From the NCBI RefSeq assembly GCF_000007985.2, contig NC_002939.5, positions 330,001 through 362,000 of the forward strand: DNA of 32,000 nt, read 5' to 3'. Every line of letters begins with the position of its first letter. Positions within the stretch are counted from its first letter, which is position 1. Positions 3,195-10,665 of this stretch are shown here, in pieces. The notes under the pieces are model-generated. The model worked only from the letters and a program-made list of their open reading frames with translations, made no database searches and was not told the origin of the DNA. This DNA comes from Geobacter sulfurreducens PCA (GTDB lineage Bacteria > Desulfobacterota > Desulfuromonadia > Geobacterales > Geobacteraceae). The position numbers were made by a program, and so were the translations under genes.

Positions 3195-4412
3195 ATGTCC
3201 TGGTTTGCCAACCTGAAAATCACCCCAAAATTCATAGTTATTCTTTGTGTCCTGTTTGTAGCTCTCATGGGTGTCAATGCCGTTGACGATTATCTGCGGC
3301 AGGAGTCGTTGATCGTCAAGGATGCCACCGATAATGCCCGTATCCTTGCCCGGCAGATCGTTGAAACCCGGGAATATATGTCTTCGGTGGTCCGGGGCGA
3401 ACCGGAGGCGAACTACAACCTCGTCCCCCAGGTGGTCGCTACCCAGGTGGCCAAGCGGATCACGACCGGCAGCAAGTACTACGTCCGTCAGGTGTCGTTA
3501 CGCTACCGCAATCCCGCCAACCGCCCCGATGCCTATGAAACGGCGATGCTTCAGCGGTTCGGCAGGGAAAAGGCTGCCGAGCAGTGGGAGGTGGTAACGA
3601 TCGACGGCAAACGGGTCTTCCGCTATCTGCTGCCCATGACTGCCGACGCCTCATGTCTCGGTTGCCACGGCCGCTACGAGGAGGCCCCGGCCTTCGTCCA
3701 GGCGCGGTTCCCCAAGGGGCACCCCTCCTATGATTACCAGATCGGCCAACTGATCGGCGCCGTGTCAGTTTCCATTCCCATGGCGGATCTCTATCGCCAG
3801 ATCGGTATCAACCTCAAGCTCGATCTGGCAATCGTCTCGGGCGTAGTCCTCCTCATCCTCGCGGCCATGAGCTTTATGGTCCACCGCTCCATTATCAAGC
3901 CGGTCCGGTCGGTGGCAACCTCCATTGGCAACGTGGCCGCTACGGGGAATTTTTCGGAACGGCTCAGGAGAAGTTCCAACGACGAGGTGGGAGAGCTGGT
4001 GGGAGCGTTCAACGAACTCATGGAGGAGTTGGATCGCACGACGCGTCAACGGCAGGAGTCTGAAGACCGCTACCGCAACGTGCTGGAGATGGCCCAGTCC
4101 GCCATTGTCACCTTTTTGGCCGACGGGAAGCTCATCATTACCAACCGCAAGGCAGAGGACCTGTTCGGCCTTCCCAAGGGAGAGCTGCTGGGTGTCTCCA
4201 TCTACACCTTCATGGAGGAGGGGGATGCGGTAAAGGGCGCCATCGAGACCTATCTGAGGGAAGGGGCGGCAGCCATGATCGGGGAGACGACCCCGCAGCG
4301 GATTCGCAGCATCCGCGGGAATGTGACAACGGTGGAAATGGCCCTCTCGGTGTCCCGGTCGGACCACAACCCCCTCTTTACCGCTATTTTGCGAGAAAAC
4401 GGCCGGTCCTAG
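3195..4412 (+). CDS. Membrane sensor protein: periplasmic c-type-heme (CXXCH) DUF3365/Tll0287-like domain, TM, HAMP and PAS; no output domain
   Basis: N-terminal TM (FIVILCVLFVALMGV); periplasmic region with YRNPANRPDAYETAMLQRF and CLGCH (heme-c motif, nt 3654-3668); second TM (LAIVSGVVLLILAAMSFMV); HAMP (IIKPVRSV...NDEVGELVGAFNELMEEL); PAS (YRNVLEMAQSAIVTFLADGKLIITNRKAEDLFG...). The ORF stops right after the PAS core. Confidence 0.85.
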   Translation: MSWFANLKITPKFIVILCVLFVALMGVNAVDDYLRQESLIVKDATDNARILARQIVETREYMSSVVRGEPEANYNLVPQVVATQVAKRITTGSKYYVRQVSLRYRNPANRPDAYETAMLQRFGREKAAEQWEVVTIDGKRVFRYLLPMTADASCLGCHGRYEEAPAFVQARFPKGHPSYDYQIGQLIGAVSVSIPMADLYRQIGINLKLDLAIVSGVVLLILAAMSFMVHRSIIKPVRSVATSIGNVAATGNFSERLRRSSNDEVGELVGAFNELMEELDRTTRQRQESEDRYRNVLEMAQSAIVTFLADGKLIITNRKAEDLFGLPKGELLGVSIYTFMEEGDAVKGAIETYLREGAAAMIGETTPQRIRSIRGNVTTVEMALSVSRSDHNPLFTAILRENGRS

Positions 4413-7042
4413 TCCCTGGCCAGCCCCTTGGTCACCACGTCGCGGATGTCTCTTGCCAGGGTGGGCTCCCGCGCTATCCGTTCCAGTTCTGTCTTCATCC
4501 GTTCCCTCCGGTTCAGCTCATGACGTCGCCAGCGGGTAAGAGGCTCGGCCATTCTGGCACCGATCATCGGGTTCAGGCTGTTCAGCTTGATCACGTGGTC
4601 CGCCAGCAATCGGTAGCCGCCTCCGGCCCTATCGTGGAACCGGACCGGGTTGTTGACGGCGAAGGAGAGGATGAGAGAACGGGCCCGGTTGGGGTTGGCC
4701 AGGGTGAAGTCGGGATGTTCCAGGAGACGCTGCACCCGGGCGAAGGTGTCCGGCAGGGGAGATGTCGCCTGGATGGCGAACCACTTGTCGATCACGAGAG
4801 GCTCCTCCCGCCACCGGGCATGGAACTCAGCCAAGGCCGTCTCCCCTTCGCTTCCCTCTGTATGGGCCAGAAGCGTCAGGGCGGAGAGGGAGTCGGTCAT
4901 GTTGTCGGCCTCCCTGAACTGACGCAGGCACGCCTGGCGGATCGAAGGGTCATCCAGAGTCATGAGGTAGCCGAGGCAGCAGGCGGCCAGGCTGCGCCGC
5001 CCTGTCTCCGCGGGCTCAAACCGGTAGGGGCCCGTGGGCCGGCACTGATCCCACAGGGCCGATAACTCCCCCCGCAACTGTCGGGCAAGGGCTGTCCTGA
5101 CAAAGCGGCGAGCCTCGAAAATCCCCTCCACCTCGATTTCTTTCATCTGCTCGCCCAGAAGATTTTCCGATGGCAGCGTCAGGGCCTCGGCCAGGAAAGC
5201 CCGGTCATTTCCCCCCGAGGTGAGCAGTGTCCCACATGCTTCGACCAGTGCCGGGGGAAGGCGGAGTTCCTGCCCGGCTCGCCGGTCTGCCACCAATTGC
5301 AAGATGGTTCCCGTCATGAGCCGTTGTCCAGCCTCCCACCGGTTGAAGAGATCACCGTCTTTCCCCATGAGAAGCGCAAGGTCCGCCTCGGTATAAGCAT
5401 AGTGCAGCCTCACGGGGGCGGAAAAGCCCCGAAACAGTGACGGCACCGGCTCTTCGGGAATGCCCCTGAAGCAGAACGTTTCCTCCTGACGACTGAGCTC
5501 CAGAGCCCGTCCCGGCTCCAGGGGAGCCTGCTCTCCATCGAGGTGCACGGACAATTCATTTCCGTTCCGGTCCAGGAGCCCCATGGCCAGGGGGATGAGA
5601 AGCGGTTCCCCGCCGGCAACGCCTTGGCGGATGGTGAGGGTGTACGCCTTGGTGTCTGCATCGTGGCTGCCGGTTACATGGATCTCCGGCGTGCCTGCCT
5701 CCCGGTACCATCTCATGAACTGCGTCAGGTCGCGCCCTGATGCTTCGGCCAGGGCGCTGACCAGGTTCTCCACCGTGGCACCGGTGCCGTCGTGGCGGTC
5801 GAAATAGAGATCCATGCCCCGGCGGAAGGCGTCGTGTCCCACAAGGGTGCGGAGCATGCGGATCAACTCTGCGCCCTTGTTGTAGACCGTGGCGGTGTAG
5901 AGGTTGTTGATGGCGTCGTAGGTCTCGGGCCGGACCGGGTGTGCTAGGGGCCCCGCATCCTCGGGGAACTGGTGGGTCCTGAGATACCGGACGTCCTGGA
6001 TCCGCTTTACCGCCGACGATCCCATGGCGGCTGAGAATTCCTGATCCCGGAAGATGGTGAGTCCTTCCTTGACAGAGAGCTGGAACCAGTCACGACAGGT
6101 GACCCGGTTGCCGCTCCAGTTGTGGAAATATTCGTGGCCGATGACCCCTTCGATGGCGGCATAGTCGGCATCGGTGGCCGTGTCGGGCCGGGCTAGGACG
6201 TAGCGGGAGTTAAAGACATTGAGCCCCTTGTTTTCCATGGCTCCGAAGTTGAAATCGTCCACGGCCACGATCATGTAGAGGTCCAGATCGTACTCCCGGC
6301 CGAATGCCTCCTCGTCCCAGCGCATGGCCTCGGCCAGGGAGCGGACGGCATGGTCGCACTTATCCCGGTTATGGCTCTGGACGTAGATTTGAAGCGCCAC
6401 CCGGCGCCCCGATTTCGTGACAAAGGTATCCTCCACCTTCACCAGGTCTCCGGCCACCAGGGCGAAGAGATAGGACGGCTTGGGGAAGGGGTCGTGCCAG
6501 GTGGCATAATGGCGGCCGTCGGGCAGATCGCCGCTGGCCGCCAGATTGCCGTTGGCCAGCAGTACCGGGCAGGTCGCCCGGTCTGCGGTGATGGTGACGG
6601 TGTAGGCTGCCAGCACGTCGGGGCGGTCCGGGAAATAGGTGATGCGGCGAAAGCCCTCTGCCTCGCACTGGGTGCAGAAGGTGCCGCCGGAGCGGTAGAG
6701 CCCCTCCAGCAGGGTGTTTTCCTGTGGCTTCAGCTCTGTAGAGACAGAGACCGTGCACTGTTCGGGAACGTGATGAATGGTGAGCGTTTCATCGTCCCGG
6801 ACATACTCGTCGGTCGTCAGGGGCTTGCCGTCCAGTGCAATGCACCGCAGCACGAGCCCTCTGCCATCGAGGACCAGAGGACGAATTCCCTTTGTCCGGT
6901 CATGATTGGCGACCACGGAGAGATCTGCCCGCACAAGGGTTACATCGTCGTGCAGGTCAACGGTCAGGTGAACGGATTCAACCCGATAATCGGGCGGGGT
7001 ATAGTCACTGAGGGCTACAGGATGGTTGTGGGGCAGGTGCAT
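4409..7042 (-). CDS. pepN: Aminopeptidase N (M1 family zinc metallopeptidase)
   Basis: 877 aa. GAMEN exopeptidase motif (FNFGAMENKGLN) and zinc site HEYFHNWSGNRVT...WFQLSVKEGLT. SD GGAGGAGG at 7052-7059, 9 nt upstream of ATG 7042-7040. Confidence 0.95.
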   Translation of the reverse strand: MHLPHNHPVALSDYTPPDYRVESVHLTVDLHDDVTLVRADLSVVANHDRTKGIRPLVLDGRGLVLRCIALDGKPLTTDEYVRDDETLTIHHVPEQCTVSVSTELKPQENTLLEGLYRSGGTFCTQCEAEGFRRITYFPDRPDVLAAYTVTITADRATCPVLLANGNLAASGDLPDGRHYATWHDPFPKPSYLFALVAGDLVKVEDTFVTKSGRRVALQIYVQSHNRDKCDHAVRSLAEAMRWDEEAFGREYDLDLYMIVAVDDFNFGAMENKGLNVFNSRYVLARPDTATDADYAAIEGVIGHEYFHNWSGNRVTCRDWFQLSVKEGLTIFRDQEFSAAMGSSAVKRIQDVRYLRTHQFPEDAGPLAHPVRPETYDAINNLYTATVYNKGAELIRMLRTLVGHDAFRRGMDLYFDRHDGTGATVENLVSALAEASGRDLTQFMRWYREAGTPEIHVTGSHDADTKAYTLTIRQGVAGGEPLLIPLAMGLLDRNGNELSVHLDGEQAPLEPGRALELSRQEETFCFRGIPEEPVPSLFRGFSAPVRLHYAYTEADLALLMGKDGDLFNRWEAGQRLMTGTILQLVADRRAGQELRLPPALVEACGTLLTSGGNDRAFLAEALTLPSENLLGEQMKEIEVEGIFEARRFVRTALARQLRGELSALWDQCRPTGPYRFEPAETGRRSLAACCLGYLMTLDDPSIRQACLRQFREADNMTDSLSALTLLAHTEGSEGETALAEFHARWREEPLVIDKWFAIQATSPLPDTFARVQRLLEHPDFTLANPNRARSLILSFAVNNPVRFHDRAGGGYRLLADHVIKLNSLNPMIGARMAEPLTRWRRHELNRRERMKTELERIAREPTLARDIRDVVTKGLARD

Positions 7043-7082
7043 GGGGACTGACCTCCTCCGAGTGGCGGTCTGATGGGTAATG

Positions 7083-7111
7083 AAAAAGGGACCGTGAGTG
7101 CGGTCCCTTTT
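7083..7111 (-). terminator. Intrinsic terminator hairpin (bidirectional type) closing the 6S-like RNA, 40 nt upstream of the pepN start
   Basis: Minus-strand RNA reads AAAA-GGGACCG-CACUCA-CGGUCCC-UUUUU. The stem is 7088-7094 paired with 7101-7107, with a 6-nt loop; the U-tract corresponds to A 7083-7087 on the plus strand. Confidence 0.7.
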
Positions 7112-7116
7112 ATTCT

Positions 7117-7300
7117 AGTCTCTCCACCATGCCGTTGGCTTGTAAGGGCCTCACAGCGAGTTCCTTACAGGTGGCAGGCTCTGTGCCGCTTCAGGCAAAT
7201 CCCACGTACTGGGGCAGCACACCACGGCTTAAAGAGCCCCCAAATGATAGTAAATGTTCCGCTGGGGCGTGTCAGCCTCACGCGCATGGTAGAGAGAATC
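7117..7300 (-). ncRNA. ssrS: 6S RNA-like structured RNA (~180 nt): rod-like fold with a large central bubble
   Basis: 14-bp closing helix UCUCUCUACCAUGC (7297-7284) with GCAUGGUGGAGAGA (7132-7119), including one G-U pair. Inner helices GGCU/AGCC and CAGCG/CGCUG. Asymmetric A/U-rich bubble of 18-19 nt (7259-7242) opposite 14 nt (7172-7159). Helix GGGGCUCU/AGAGCC-ug-CC, then a terminal arm. Own promoter upstream and terminator downstream. Folded by eye only. Confidence 0.55.
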
Positions 7301-7314
7301 TTAATTTTGATTGT

Positions 7315-7343
7315 AGTCTAGCGCCAGCCACGGGATAAATCAA
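7315..7343 (-). promoter_or_regulatory. Candidate sigma-70-type promoter of the 6S-like RNA
   Basis: Minus strand: TTGATT (7343-7338), 17-nt spacer, TAGACT (7320-7315). The predicted start near 7308 is about 10 nt before the closing helix. Confidence 0.45.
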
Positions 7344-7389
7344 GCCCCTTTTTGGGAAGGCTTCAGGATATGGAGGATGGGTGGAATGC

Positions 7390-7418
7390 TTGACCTTTTT
7401 TGCCATATGCTATAGGCT
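7390..7418 (+). promoter_or_regulatory. Candidate sigma-70-type promoter for the hyp operon (divergent from the RNA promoter)
   Basis: TTGACC (7390-7395) followed by TATAGG (7411-7416, 15-nt spacer) or TAGGCT (7413-7418, 17-nt spacer). This would give a ~170-nt leader before hypB. Confidence 0.25.
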
Positions 7419-7593
7419 CGGAGTTAGGCACGAAATGGTGTGTTCTGGCAGTTTTGCACCCTCCTCCGCGCCCCCACCATCGGATTCGCTCCATCAGTAG
7501 ACAGAGACCATCAGGCCGTTTTCCCGGAGCGCCCCTTTTTGACCTCGGGCGCCCGTCCATATGGCCGTAATGAAACAGGAGGCGACCAGCGTC

Positions 7594-8358
7594 ATGTGTA
7601 CCACCTGCGGTTGCGAAACAGGCTCTCACCATCATCACCATGAACACGGCCATGGGCACAGTCACAGCCACGGCCACACCCACGACGACGAGCGCGAGTC
7701 GCGAAAGATCGCGGTGGAAACCGACATCCTCTCACGTAATAATCGCTTTGCCGCCGACAATCGGGCGCTTTTTGCGAAAAAGGGAGTGTTTGTCCTCAAT
7801 CTTGTGAGTTCGCCGGGCTCCGGCAAGACAACCACCCTTGAGCGGACCCTTGGAGATCTGTCGGACAGGTATCGTTGCGCCGTCATCGAAGGGGATCAGC
7901 AGACCGACAACGACGCGCAACGCATTGCCGCTACCGGCGTGCCGGCCCGGCAGATCAACACCGGCGCCGGCTGCCATCTCGATGCCCACATGGTTGGACA
8001 TGCCGCCGAGGAGTTCGATCTGGACGCGTTGGATCTCCTTCTCGTCGAAAACGTGGGTAATTTGGTCTGCCCCGCTTCCTTTGATCTGGGAGAGCATCAC
8101 AAAGTGGTGGTCCTGTCGGTTACCGAGGGAGAGGACAAACCCCTCAAGTATCCGAATATGTTCCACGCGGCAGACGTTATGCTGCTCAACAAGATCGACC
8201 TGCTCCCCTACGTGGATTTCGATGTCGAGAAATGCCTGGAGATGGCCAGGCGGGTGAGCCCTGGGATTACGATCTTTCAGGTTTCGAGCCGGACCGGCGA
8301 GGGGATGGATGCTTGGTATGCATGGCTGGCCGACCGCATTGCGGCGGTGAAGGGGTAG
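7594..8358 (+). CDS. hypB: Hydrogenase nickel-incorporation GTPase HypB
   Basis: MCTTCGC N-terminal high-affinity Ni motif (as at the E. coli HypB N-terminus), His-rich tract HHHHHEHGHGHSHSHGHTH, and P-loop SSPGSGKTT. In-frame ATGs at 7561 and 7570 are also possible, but only ATG 7594 has an upstream SD (AGGAGG 7577-7582). Confidence 0.9.
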   Translation: MCTTCGCETGSHHHHHEHGHGHSHSHGHTHDDERESRKIAVETDILSRNNRFAADNRALFAKKGVFVLNLVSSPGSGKTTTLERTLGDLSDRYRCAVIEGDQQTDNDAQRIAATGVPARQINTGAGCHLDAHMVGHAAEEFDLDALDLLLVENVGNLVCPASFDLGEHHKVVVLSVTEGEDKPLKYPNMFHAADVMLLNKIDLLPYVDFDVEKCLEMARRVSPGITIFQVSSRTGEGMDAWYAWLADRIAAVKG

Positions 8359-8373
8359 GTCGGGAATTCGGCC

Positions 8374-10665
8374 GTGGTGCTCAGGCTCAGGATAGCCGTT
8401 GAGGGCATTGTCCAGGGCGTCGGGTTCCGCCCCTTCATCTTCAGGCTGGCTGCCCATCACGGTATCGTCGGATGGGTCATGAACAGCGGCGCCGGTGTCG
8501 TCATGGAAGCTGAAGGTGATGCCGGCGCCCTCGCTGCCTTTCGCTCCGCCATTGTGAGTGATGCCCCCCCCCTGGCGGTCATTGCCCGAATCGCCATTGA
8601 GGAAATTGCACCCCAGGGGGATGGCTCTTTTGTCATCGGCGAGAGCGGCGAGGGAGCGGGTACGGTGCGGGTGGCCCCCGACGGCGATGTCTGTCCAGAC
8701 TGCCTTCGGGAACTCTTTGACCCGTCGGACCGGCGCTACCGCTATCCGTTCATCAACTGCACCAACTGTGGGCCTCGCTATTCCCTCGTCACTGCTGTCC
8801 CCTACGACCGGTCCAATACTACCATGGCGCGCTTTCCCCTGTGCGATGCCTGTCGGTCCGAGTACGAAGATCCGATGGATCGCAGATTCCATGCCCAGCC
8901 CGTAGCCTGCCCCGACTGCGGCCCGACGCTGAGGCTGGTGGATGCCTCGGGTGCCGGTCTGCCGGGGGACCCCGTCGACCAAACCGTGGAGCTTCTGACC
9001 GAAGGCAAGATCGTCGCGATCAAGGGGCTCGGCGGTTATCACCTGGCGGTGGACGCCGCCAACGACGCCGCCGTGGCGGAACTGCGACGACGCAAGCACC
9101 GGGATGAAAAGCCCTTCGCCGTGATGGCGCGGGATATGGAAGCCGTGGCGCGGTTTGCCTTGGTCGACTCCGTGGAGGCGCGGCTTCTGACCGGGCCCGA
9201 GCATCCCATAGTGTTGCTGCGCAAACGGCCAAGTACCATCCTCTCCGGTCGAGTGGCCCCTGCCAACGGCTATATCGGGACCATGCTCCCCTATACGCCG
9301 CTGCACCACCTGCTGCTCGAGGAGCGGTTCGCTGCTCTCGTCATGACAAGCGGCAACCTGTCGGACGAACCCATTTCCTACCGGGATGATGAGGCGGTTG
9401 AGCGGCTTTCGGCGATCGCCGATGCATTTCTGGTCCACGACCGGGAGATTCGGACCCGCATCGATGATTCCGTCATCCGGGTATTCAGGGGAAGCCCCCT
9501 CTTTTTGCGCCGCTCCCGCGGCTATGTTCCCCGCGAGGTACGGTTGCCCGTGGAGATTCCGCCCGTTCTTGCCGTAGGCGCCGAGCTCAAGGGCGCCCTG
9601 TGCCTCACTCGGGGAGACCGGGCGTTCCCGAGCCAGCACATCGGTGACCTCAAGAACGACACAACCCTGACGTCTCTGGCGGCAACGGCGGAACACCTGC
9701 AGGCGCTCCTGGAGATCAGGCCCCAGTTGGTGGCCCACGACCTCCATCCCGACTATCTTTCCACGGGCTACGCCGAGGGGATTGCCGGGCTCCCCCGGGT
9801 GGCGGTCCAGCATCATCACGCTCATCTCGCCTCTTGTATGGCCGACAACGGTCTTGACGGCAGCGTCATCGGCGTCATCTTCGACGGCACCGGCCTCGGG
9901 ACCGACGGGACCGTCTGGGGGGGCGAGTTCCTCGTGGGCGGATATGACGGATTCCGCCGGGCCGCCCACTTCCGGCAGGTACCCCTGCCGGGTGGAGACG
10001 CGGCTGTGAGGGAGCCGTATCGCATGGCGCTCGCTTACCTGCACGATGCCTTTGGTGCCGATTTCTTTGAGCAGCCGGTCCCCTGGCTGACCGAGGTAGG
10101 GGATGAGGATCGCTCGCTGTTTCTGCGCATGCTGGAGCGCCGGATAAACTCTCCCCTGACCTCCAGCTGTGGCAGGCTCTTCGATGCCGTGGCCGCCATG
10201 GTGGGGCTGCGGCGCACGGTGAGCTACGAGGGGCAGGCGGCCATCGAGCTGGAAGGGCAGGCGGAAGAGTCCGCCACGGGACGGGCCTATCCCTTTGCCG
10301 TGCTGAGTCGGCAGGGTGCCATCGAAGTGGACTACCGGCTCATGATCCGGGCACTGATGGAGGATCTTGCCGTGCAGGTCTCCCTCCCGGAGATGGCCCG
10401 GGCGTTCCACAACACGGTTGCGGCCTCTGTTGTCGACGTCTGCCGCAAGGTACGGAGCGAGACCGGCCTCGACCGGATCGTCCTCTCGGGAGGAGTCTTT
10501 CAGAACCGGCTCCTCTGCGAGGAGTCGTGCCGGCTGCTTGAGGCAGAAGGGTTCCGGGTGTTTACCCACCGTCTCGTTCCTCCCAATGACGGAGGCGTGG
10601 CGCTGGGACAGGCCGTGATTGCAGGGGTGGCCCACCGTGTCCCCCGGAGTGATAAAGGAGAATAA
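8374..10665 (+). CDS. hypF: Carbamoyltransferase HypF
   Basis: GTG start, 763 aa. Acylphosphatase domain (VQGVGFRPF), two zinc-finger pairs (CPDC...CTNCGPRYS; CDAC...CPDCGP), YrdC-like segment (KGLGGYHLAVDA) and a Kae1-like C-terminal domain. Confidence 0.95.
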   Translation: MVLRLRIAVEGIVQGVGFRPFIFRLAAHHGIVGWVMNSGAGVVMEAEGDAGALAAFRSAIVSDAPPLAVIARIAIEEIAPQGDGSFVIGESGEGAGTVRVAPDGDVCPDCLRELFDPSDRRYRYPFINCTNCGPRYSLVTAVPYDRSNTTMARFPLCDACRSEYEDPMDRRFHAQPVACPDCGPTLRLVDASGAGLPGDPVDQTVELLTEGKIVAIKGLGGYHLAVDAANDAAVAELRRRKHRDEKPFAVMARDMEAVARFALVDSVEARLLTGPEHPIVLLRKRPSTILSGRVAPANGYIGTMLPYTPLHHLLLEERFAALVMTSGNLSDEPISYRDDEAVERLSAIADAFLVHDREIRTRIDDSVIRVFRGSPLFLRRSRGYVPREVRLPVEIPPVLAVGAELKGALCLTRGDRAFPSQHIGDLKNDTTLTSLAATAEHLQALLEIRPQLVAHDLHPDYLSTGYAEGIAGLPRVAVQHHHAHLASCMADNGLDGSVIGVIFDGTGLGTDGTVWGGEFLVGGYDGFRRAAHFRQVPLPGGDAAVREPYRMALAYLHDAFGADFFEQPVPWLTEVGDEDRSLFLRMLERRINSPLTSSCGRLFDAVAAMVGLRRTVSYEGQAAIELEGQAEESATGRAYPFAVLSRQGAIEVDYRLMIRALMEDLAVQVSLPEMARAFHNTVAASVVDVCRKVRSETGLDRIVLSGGVFQNRLLCEESCRLLEAEGFRVFTHRLVPPNDGGVALGQAVIAGVAHRVPRSDKGE

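Follow-up and report, generated by a model that had tools for sequence, protein, structure and literature searches.

A 6S RNA encoded in the pepN-hypB spacer of Geobacter sulfurreducens

Does the spacer between the divergently oriented genes pepN and hypB of Geobacter sulfurreducens encode an RNA and, if so, of what kind and with which signals for its own expression? The spacer lies in a stretch of 32 kb, analyzed as a whole and called the window here. Further genes in the window are hypF, hypD, hypE, and those of a Gsp type II secretion cluster. The pepN, HypB, and GspE of the window belong to clusters (90% identity) with G. sulfurreducens and G. anodireducens as the named members. An earlier reading, made from the letters alone (the sequence-only reading), had proposed an unlisted structured RNA with 6S architecture in what it described as the largest non-coding stretch of the window. 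That stretch spans 7043 to about 7593, and the 6S gene accounts for 7083–7343 of it only. 6S RNA is a well-known regulator, an open-promoter mimic that sequesters RNA polymerase.

The identity of the RNA was addressed with covariance models, beginning with the whole-Rfam scan that had been suggested as a check. Across the 32 kb and 4227 families, the sole match was to RF00013 (6S/SsrS), on the minus strand only, at 7117–7298. This 182-nt core covers the model over its full length (positions 1–187 of 187, not truncated) with 74.2 bits (E 4.5e-13), which is 28 bits above the gathering score of 46.4. A permissive rescan of 6950–7700 at E<=1 returned no competing family; the sub-threshold matches there were mir-679 (23.9 bits, gathering score 80) and sraA (22.2 bits, gathering score 56). 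By this curated criterion, together with the covariation described below, the RNA belongs to the 6S family, in agreement with the architecture first recognized by eye. We hold with high confidence that the locus is the ssrS gene of G. sulfurreducens, encoding its 6S RNA.

A 6S RNA between pepN and hypB is a gene of an already known kind and no discovery. The 6S survey of Barrick et al. in 2005 reportedly included Geobacter. The published annotation of G. sulfurreducens already lists ssrS as GSUR0059, “6S RNA” (PMC10599522), so that the RNA was unlisted with respect to the ORF list supplied to the sequence-only reading and not with respect to the annotation of the organism. The same RNA-seq study detected this ssrS transcript (GSUR0059) at about 3 log2 units higher in gsu1771-mutant biofilm on graphite/electrode (PMC10599522). 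We assume that GSUR0059 is the present locus, 7117–7298, and for that reason a second paralogue stays a small possibility.

Coordinates of the structural elements, signals, and flanking genes are collected in Table 1. When the Rfam consensus is threaded onto the sequence, 48 pairs result, 46 of them canonical, and these include the closing, CAGCG/CGCUG, and GGGGCUCU helices. Read directly on the minus strand over 6900–7500, the closing helix has the composition first proposed for it (13 Watson-Crick pairs and one G-U), and the GGCU/AGCC and CAGCG/CGCUG helices also lie where they had been placed. The same holds for the two strands of the central bubble (18 and 14 nt), an A/U-rich and asymmetric element in which 7259–7242 stands opposite 7172–7159, with covarying helices on its flanks. 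One helix needed correction: the GGGGCUCU helix is present at the proposed coordinates, but its two bubble-proximal pairs as first drawn (7240–7173 and 7239–7174) are only 45.8% paired in homologues. The comparative data favor a shift by one nucleotide into the Rfam register, with 7241–7173 and 7240–7174, which are paired in most homologues.

Table 1. Features of the 6S RNA locus and its flanking genes. Positions are those of the window.
Feature	Positions	Strand	Remarks
Putative −35 element, TTGATT	7343–7338	−	TTGAnT in all five sequences compared (window, L086, L085, L089, L088), same register
Putative −10 element, TAGACT	7320–7315	−	17-nt spacer 7337–7321; relatives read TAGACT, TAGAAT, or TATACT
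Closing helix (sequence-only reading)	7297–7284 UCUCUCUACCAUGC with 7132–7119 GCAUGGUGGAGAGA	−	13 Watson-Crick pairs plus U-G 7291/7125
Closing stem, consensus	7280–7297 with 7119–7135	−	17 pairs, 91–99% paired in 34 homologues; 7 changed on both sides
GGCU/AGCC helix	7277–7274 with 7140–7137	−	Outside the Rfam consensus; structure-blind alignment
“Downstream” helix, 5′ strand GCCC + CAGCG	7260–7268, pairs with 7148–7158	−	9/9 pairs changed on both sides; putative pRNA template
CAGCG/CGCUG helix	7264–7260 with 7158–7154	−	94.6% paired in homologues
Central bubble, 5′ strand GAACAUUUACUAUCAUUU	7242–7259	−	18 nt; unpaired in the Rfam consensus
Central bubble, 3′ strand ACCUGUAAGGAACU	7159–7172	−	14 nt; CCACCUG at its 5′ edge, matching the Rfam consensus
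GGGGCUCU helix	7240–7233 opposite AGAGCCugCC 7182–7173	−	Read directly
Apical (“upstream”) arm	7173–7241	−	Helices 7224–7241/7173–7189 and 7217–7218/7195–7196; terminal hairpin 7210–7213/7201–7204
Alternative 3′ hairpin	7141–7169	−	UGUAAGG (7169–7163)/CCUUACA (7147–7141), inner CUC/GAG; from free MFE and in silico blocking
Terminator, GGGACCG-CACUCA-CGGUCCC + UUUUU	7107–7083	−	Read directly
Terminator with A-U stem extension, AAAGGGACCG-CACUCA-CGGUCCCUUU + UU	7110–7083	−	−17.5 kcal/mol, z = −6.1
pepN (aminopeptidase N)	4409–7042	−	TIGR02414, 1313 bits
hypB	7561–8358	+	Divergent from 6S

Folding energy gave a partial view of this structure. For the 182-nt core the predicted fold has −80.7 kcal/mol (z = −4.0; none of 200 shuffles was as stable), and the plus strand comes close to this. 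Fold energy was considered as a guide to the strand and rejected (z = −4.0 for minus vs. −3.8 for plus). The strand is fixed as minus by three G-U pairs, which turn into A-C on the plus strand. Adding the GGCU/AGCC helix to the rod changes its energy from −63.4 to −70.4 kcal/mol. The minimum free energy of the free RNA is lower than that of this open-bubble rod (−80.7 vs. −70.4 kcal/mol), and the corresponding fold holds a 3′ hairpin, 7169–7141, in place of the open bubble, so that the case for the bubble comes from comparison and not from thermodynamics. Taken alone, the hairpin has −13.5 kcal/mol; it also forms when 7268–7256 is blocked in silico (−77.0 kcal/mol), and it is only partly conserved in relatives.

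Comparison with close relatives establishes constraint. Two related genomes, with pepN 93% and 84% identical, keep the order hypB-spacer-pepN (L085 and L086). Aligning the orthologous spacers, another check proposed at the outset, revealed the same 6S gene in both (73–74 bits, approximately 97–99% identical), with flanks that diverge, freely so upstream of about −45. No covariation signal comes from the three close sequences (99% identical), which show constraint only; the single within-pair change among them breaks an A-U to A-C in the terminal hairpin. Species-representative genomes were scanned using pepN as an anchor, and among the matches listed the relatives all had <=58% identity. In the 14 sampled Geobacteraceae pepN loci, those closest to Geobacter, no 6S gene was found within about 4 kb of pepN. 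The synteny of 6S and pepN is thus limited to the G. sulfurreducens group.

Because the pepN loci of distant relatives lack the 6S gene, homologues were sought in metagenomes by a pattern scan with three conserved blocks (GTGGTGTGC, GCCTRAA, and CCACCTG), which was tested locally first. The scan returned 80 loci, 20 of which were sampled; 19 of these had a complete match, and all 19 are Rfam 6S RNAs at 68–91 bits. The pattern fixes 23 bases by construction, so it can only hide covariation and not create it, and the invariance of CCACCUG among the retrieved homologues is uninformative since this is one of the fixed blocks. Two Geobacter-like metagenomic sequences, L089 and L088, score 117 and 76 bits against the Geobacter model. 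Two riboswitches unrelated to the finding were also seen, an FMN riboswitch (L153, 1506–1657, minus strand) located some 1.5 kb away from a 6S gene and, downstream of the pepN of a Desulfococcus, a cobalamin riboswitch (L026, 7626–7804, plus strand).

For the comparative analysis we built a Geobacter-only covariance model (R1) from three Geobacter-lineage sequences and the Rfam-derived structure. The R1 alignment contains 34 sequences at E<=1e-4, a cut chosen because the weaker tail held a 24-bit reverse-strand match to L085. In that match (L085 2815–2996, minus strand), R1 gives 24.2 bits (E ~9e-4) to a true 6S RNA read as its reverse complement; such models see little difference between the two strands of a rod-like RNA, and weak matches are therefore unfit for strand assignment. 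The model was also able to find a distant 6S gene: it places the annotated ssrS of E. coli K-12 at 984–1167 (annotated 984–1166) with 32.9 bits and E 3.7e-08, and other R1 matches in that 2.5-kb locus reach at most 7.3 bits.

Among the 34 sequences, 94.1% of the consensus-structure cells are paired, compared to 78.5% in column shuffles and 39–45% when partners are slid by 1–3 columns. Compensatory double changes occur at 30 of the 48 pairs, and the covariation score is 0.426 (shuffles 0.155, slid controls 0.04–0.08). The apical helices (5–8) are 93–100% paired, with 14 of 22 pairs changed on both sides. Scored exactly as the sequence-only reading had written them, its helices are 90.8% paired and show double changes at 20 of 31 pairs; the compensatory changes that it had suggested looking for in the 7284–7297/7119–7132 helix do occur, in the more distant homologues. 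The 34-sequence alignment was fitted to the model structure, which favors pairing, a bias that the slid controls and a structure-blind alignment offset in part. For this reason MAFFT and RNAalifold were run on 22 sequences with no structural input. They recovered 30 pairs, 14 with double changes, in the closing stem, the GGC/GCC helix of the sequence-only reading, and the apical helices. In the GGC/GCC helix (columns 22–24 with 177–179) the compensatory pair types are UA:16 GC:4 and GC:14 AU:3 CG:2 UA:2.

The 6S gene may be a transcription unit of its own. The sequence-only reading had described a sigma-70-like promoter (TTGATT, 17 nt, TAGACT) and a GC hairpin followed by U5, and both descriptions hold up in comparison. 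The −35 element reads TTGATT or TTGAGT, and the 17-nt spacing is kept in the five sequences though the spacer sequences diverge, giving a conserved register. A hairpin with a T-run lies at the same place in all five sequences, with different stem sequences, and that of the window folds with z = −6.1. A generic consensus scan did not return the 6S promoter, which has 8/12 matches against a cut of 9/12, and a generic terminator scan did not return the 6S terminator, whose A-U stem extension leaves too few T in the tail; both signals were therefore judged by conservation. On that evidence, the 6S RNA has its own conserved sigma-70-type promoter (7343–7315) and intrinsic terminator (7110–7083), each a prediction from sequence.

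We also considered TACAAT (7315–7310) as the −10 element, which is better in isolation and would put the start nearer the mature 5′ end; it was rejected, since neither L089 nor L088 conserves it. With the conserved elements, transcription would start at about A7308/A7307. With a start at about A7308, approximately 10 nt of leader precede the closing stem, and approximately 34 nt of tail run through the terminator; some trimming of the ends is therefore likely.

The remainder of the spacer belongs to the hypB side. There, the three syntenic genomes hardly differ over 7385–7480, and 7344–7384 diverges. A candidate hypB promoter on the plus strand combines TTGACC (7390–7395) with an extended −10-like TGcTATAGG (7408–7416), divergent from the 6S promoter. 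The hypB leader (about 170 nt) was examined as a possible riboswitch or other RNA, with no Rfam match at E<=1, a fold z of +0.39, and no covariation, and inspection by eye for a sigma-54 −24/−12 element in it found none that is convincing. The conservation of 7385–7480 probably reflects operator DNA. The mechanical HypB ORF (265 aa) starts at 7561 on the plus strand; the conserved N-terminus MCTTCGC begins at the ATG at 7594, which has AGGAGG 11 nt before it, and the resulting 254-aa form is that of most database entries. This N-terminus is followed by a His-rich tract, HHHHHEHGHGHSHSHGH, which probably explains the variation in HypB length (248–269 aa) within its 90% cluster. Further along the plus strand is hypF (8374–10665; TIGR00143, 819 bits). 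A 967-aa ORF antisense to it (7732–10635, minus strand) was rejected as a gene, having no family match and being a shadow ORF; shadow ORFs are common in GC-rich DNA.

On the other side, the 6S gene stands close to pepN. About 40 nt separate the end of the T-run at 7083 from the pepN ATG at 7042, with only a ribosome-binding site, GGAGGAGG, between them; L085 and L086 share this arrangement. As a promoter would not fit into 7042–7083, transcription of pepN may rely on polymerase reading through from the 6S promoter. The consensus scan also recorded a promoter-like CTGACA-17-TACTAT within the 6S gene itself (7247–7275, minus strand, 9/12 matches), with the −10-like hexamer in the 5′ bubble strand; it may have arisen by chance, reflect promoter mimicry, or serve pepN as an internal promoter. 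One possible history, which we put forward tentatively and consider rather doubtful, is that in the G. sulfurreducens lineage ssrS moved directly in front of a pepN that lacks a promoter of its own, and that pepN expression relies entirely on transcripts that pass the 6S terminator or begin at the internal CTGACA-17-TACTAT. If true, a peptide-scavenging enzyme would be coupled to the growth-phase promoter of 6S RNA, an arrangement like ssrS-ygfA of E. coli with another partner.

The locus type zapA-ssrS-ygfA is absent here: the neighbors are hypB (divergent) and pepN (downstream). A zapA gene upstream and a 5-formyltetrahydrofolate cyclo-ligase gene downstream are typical of the proteobacterial ssrS locus and do not define the family. 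The genomic context of 6S RNA varies between lineages. A distant metagenomic homologue (L111, 6643–7600) has the canonical order zapB-zapA-6S, and in the Geobacter-like L089 (2534–4569) the nearest gene with a family assignment encodes a beta-lactamase fold and lies about 400 nt downstream.

These contexts bear on whether the RNA might be something other than a trans-acting 6S RNA. Its position directly upstream of pepN on the same strand, over a gap without room for a promoter and with the same arrangement in L085 and L086, would also suit a structured 5′ leader or attenuator of pepN, in which RNA and terminator control read-through with no action in trans. Such a leader would, however, not be expected to be a full-length 6S RNA by covariance model, nor to have homologues in unrelated contexts (next to zapB-zapA in L111 and a beta-lactamase-fold gene in L089), and no such element occurs within 4 kb of pepN in the other Geobacteraceae sampled. 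Moreover, co-transcription with a downstream gene is normal for ssrS, as in E. coli, where fau (ygfA) follows it, so read-through would add to the 6S function and not replace it. We consider a pepN leader very unlikely. Still less credible is a small plus-strand protein with an incidental RNA fold. The two ORFs in question, 7073–7321 and 7129–7338, are open over 82 and 69 aa, but neither matches any family, as anticipated by the sequence-only reading, which saw no coding support for them. Indels of 1, 2, and 4 nt in homologues would shift their frame, the substitutions follow base-pairing, and the promoter and terminator flank an RNA on the minus strand.

A closer alternative accepts the 6S assignment and takes this gene to be a second, specialized paralogue, GSUR0059 being another locus. 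Bacillus has two 6S paralogues, 6S-1 and 6S-2, and both the unusual context (not zapA-ssrS-ygfA) and the predicted initiating template base (C, not U) would fit such a copy. Against this, the data at hand contain one 6S match only, its score of 74 bits is like that of other single-copy homologues (68–91 bits), and two Geobacter 6S genes are not reported in the literature searched. The chance of a paralogue appears small, and a single ssrS gene of G. sulfurreducens is the reading that we carry forward.

By homology with the 6S RNAs of E. coli and B. subtilis, the rod of this ssrS RNA with its open bubble would mimic an open promoter. It would occupy the active site of the RpoD (sigma-70) holoenzyme and so damp sigma-70-dependent transcription during slow growth. 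When nucleotides or nutrients return, the polymerase is predicted to copy the 5′ bubble strand and the downstream helix into a short pRNA. The putative start is C7256, with the product 5′-GUUCCGCUGGGGC; it would begin with GUUCCGCUGG and be complementary to 7256–7268. The pRNA would displace 7268–7256, upon which the 3′ strand could form the hairpin 7169–7141, the bubble would collapse, and the polymerase would be released. In E. coli, the pRNA starts at U44 and a release hairpin mechanism has been described (PMC9670815); we infer that the hairpin 7169–7141 may be the counterpart of that release hairpin. When E. coli ssrS is aligned to the Geobacter model, C7256 aligns with U44. A C template should be compatible with initiation because the E. 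coli U44C mutant, which presents a C template, initiates with GTP (PMC9670815).

For Geobacter physiology, the locus may be of interest for its unusual context and possible coupling to pepN, for the predicted G-initiated pRNA, and for the up-regulation of ssrS in the gsu1771 mutant (PMC10599522). Biologically, it offers nothing new in kind. Its value lies mostly in calibration: from raw sequence alone, a reader correctly recognized a 6S RNA together with its promoter, helices, bubble, and terminator.

The founding member of RF00013 is the 6S RNA of Escherichia coli (ssrS, b2911), and the likeness to it is extensive. The two RNAs are of nearly the same length (183 nt in E. coli vs. 182 nt here) and share the closing stem, central bubble, and apical stem; in both, the apical arm and the 3′ bubble strand have GGUG(U/A)GC and CACCU motifs at their flanks, and the Geobacter-derived model aligns to the E. 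coli RNA end to end. In both genomes a downstream gene lies close by on the same strand. They differ in context (zapA-ssrS-fau (ygfA) in E. coli, hypB/pepN in Geobacter) and in helix sequences, for which the R1 score of 32.9 bits gives a measure. They also differ at the pRNA start, U44 in E. coli and C7256 in Geobacter, the latter predicting a GTP-initiated pRNA. The Geobacter 6S RNA has in addition the GGCU/AGCC helix, which falls in an internal loop of the Rfam consensus.

Closer in sequence are the metagenomic 6S RNAs of L089 and L088, which share the promoter pattern (TTGAnT, 17 nt, TAnAnT) and intrinsic terminators, and differ in their flanking genes and in an alternative 3′ hairpin that is shorter or located elsewhere. 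Bacillus subtilis belongs to another phylum and has two 6S paralogues. The likeness to its 6S-1 RNA (bsrA) would lie in function: 6S-1 has a pRNA starting with G, and a pRNA-induced rearrangement collapses its bubble and drives release (PMC3753640; PMC8876501), as is predicted for the RNA of G. sulfurreducens.
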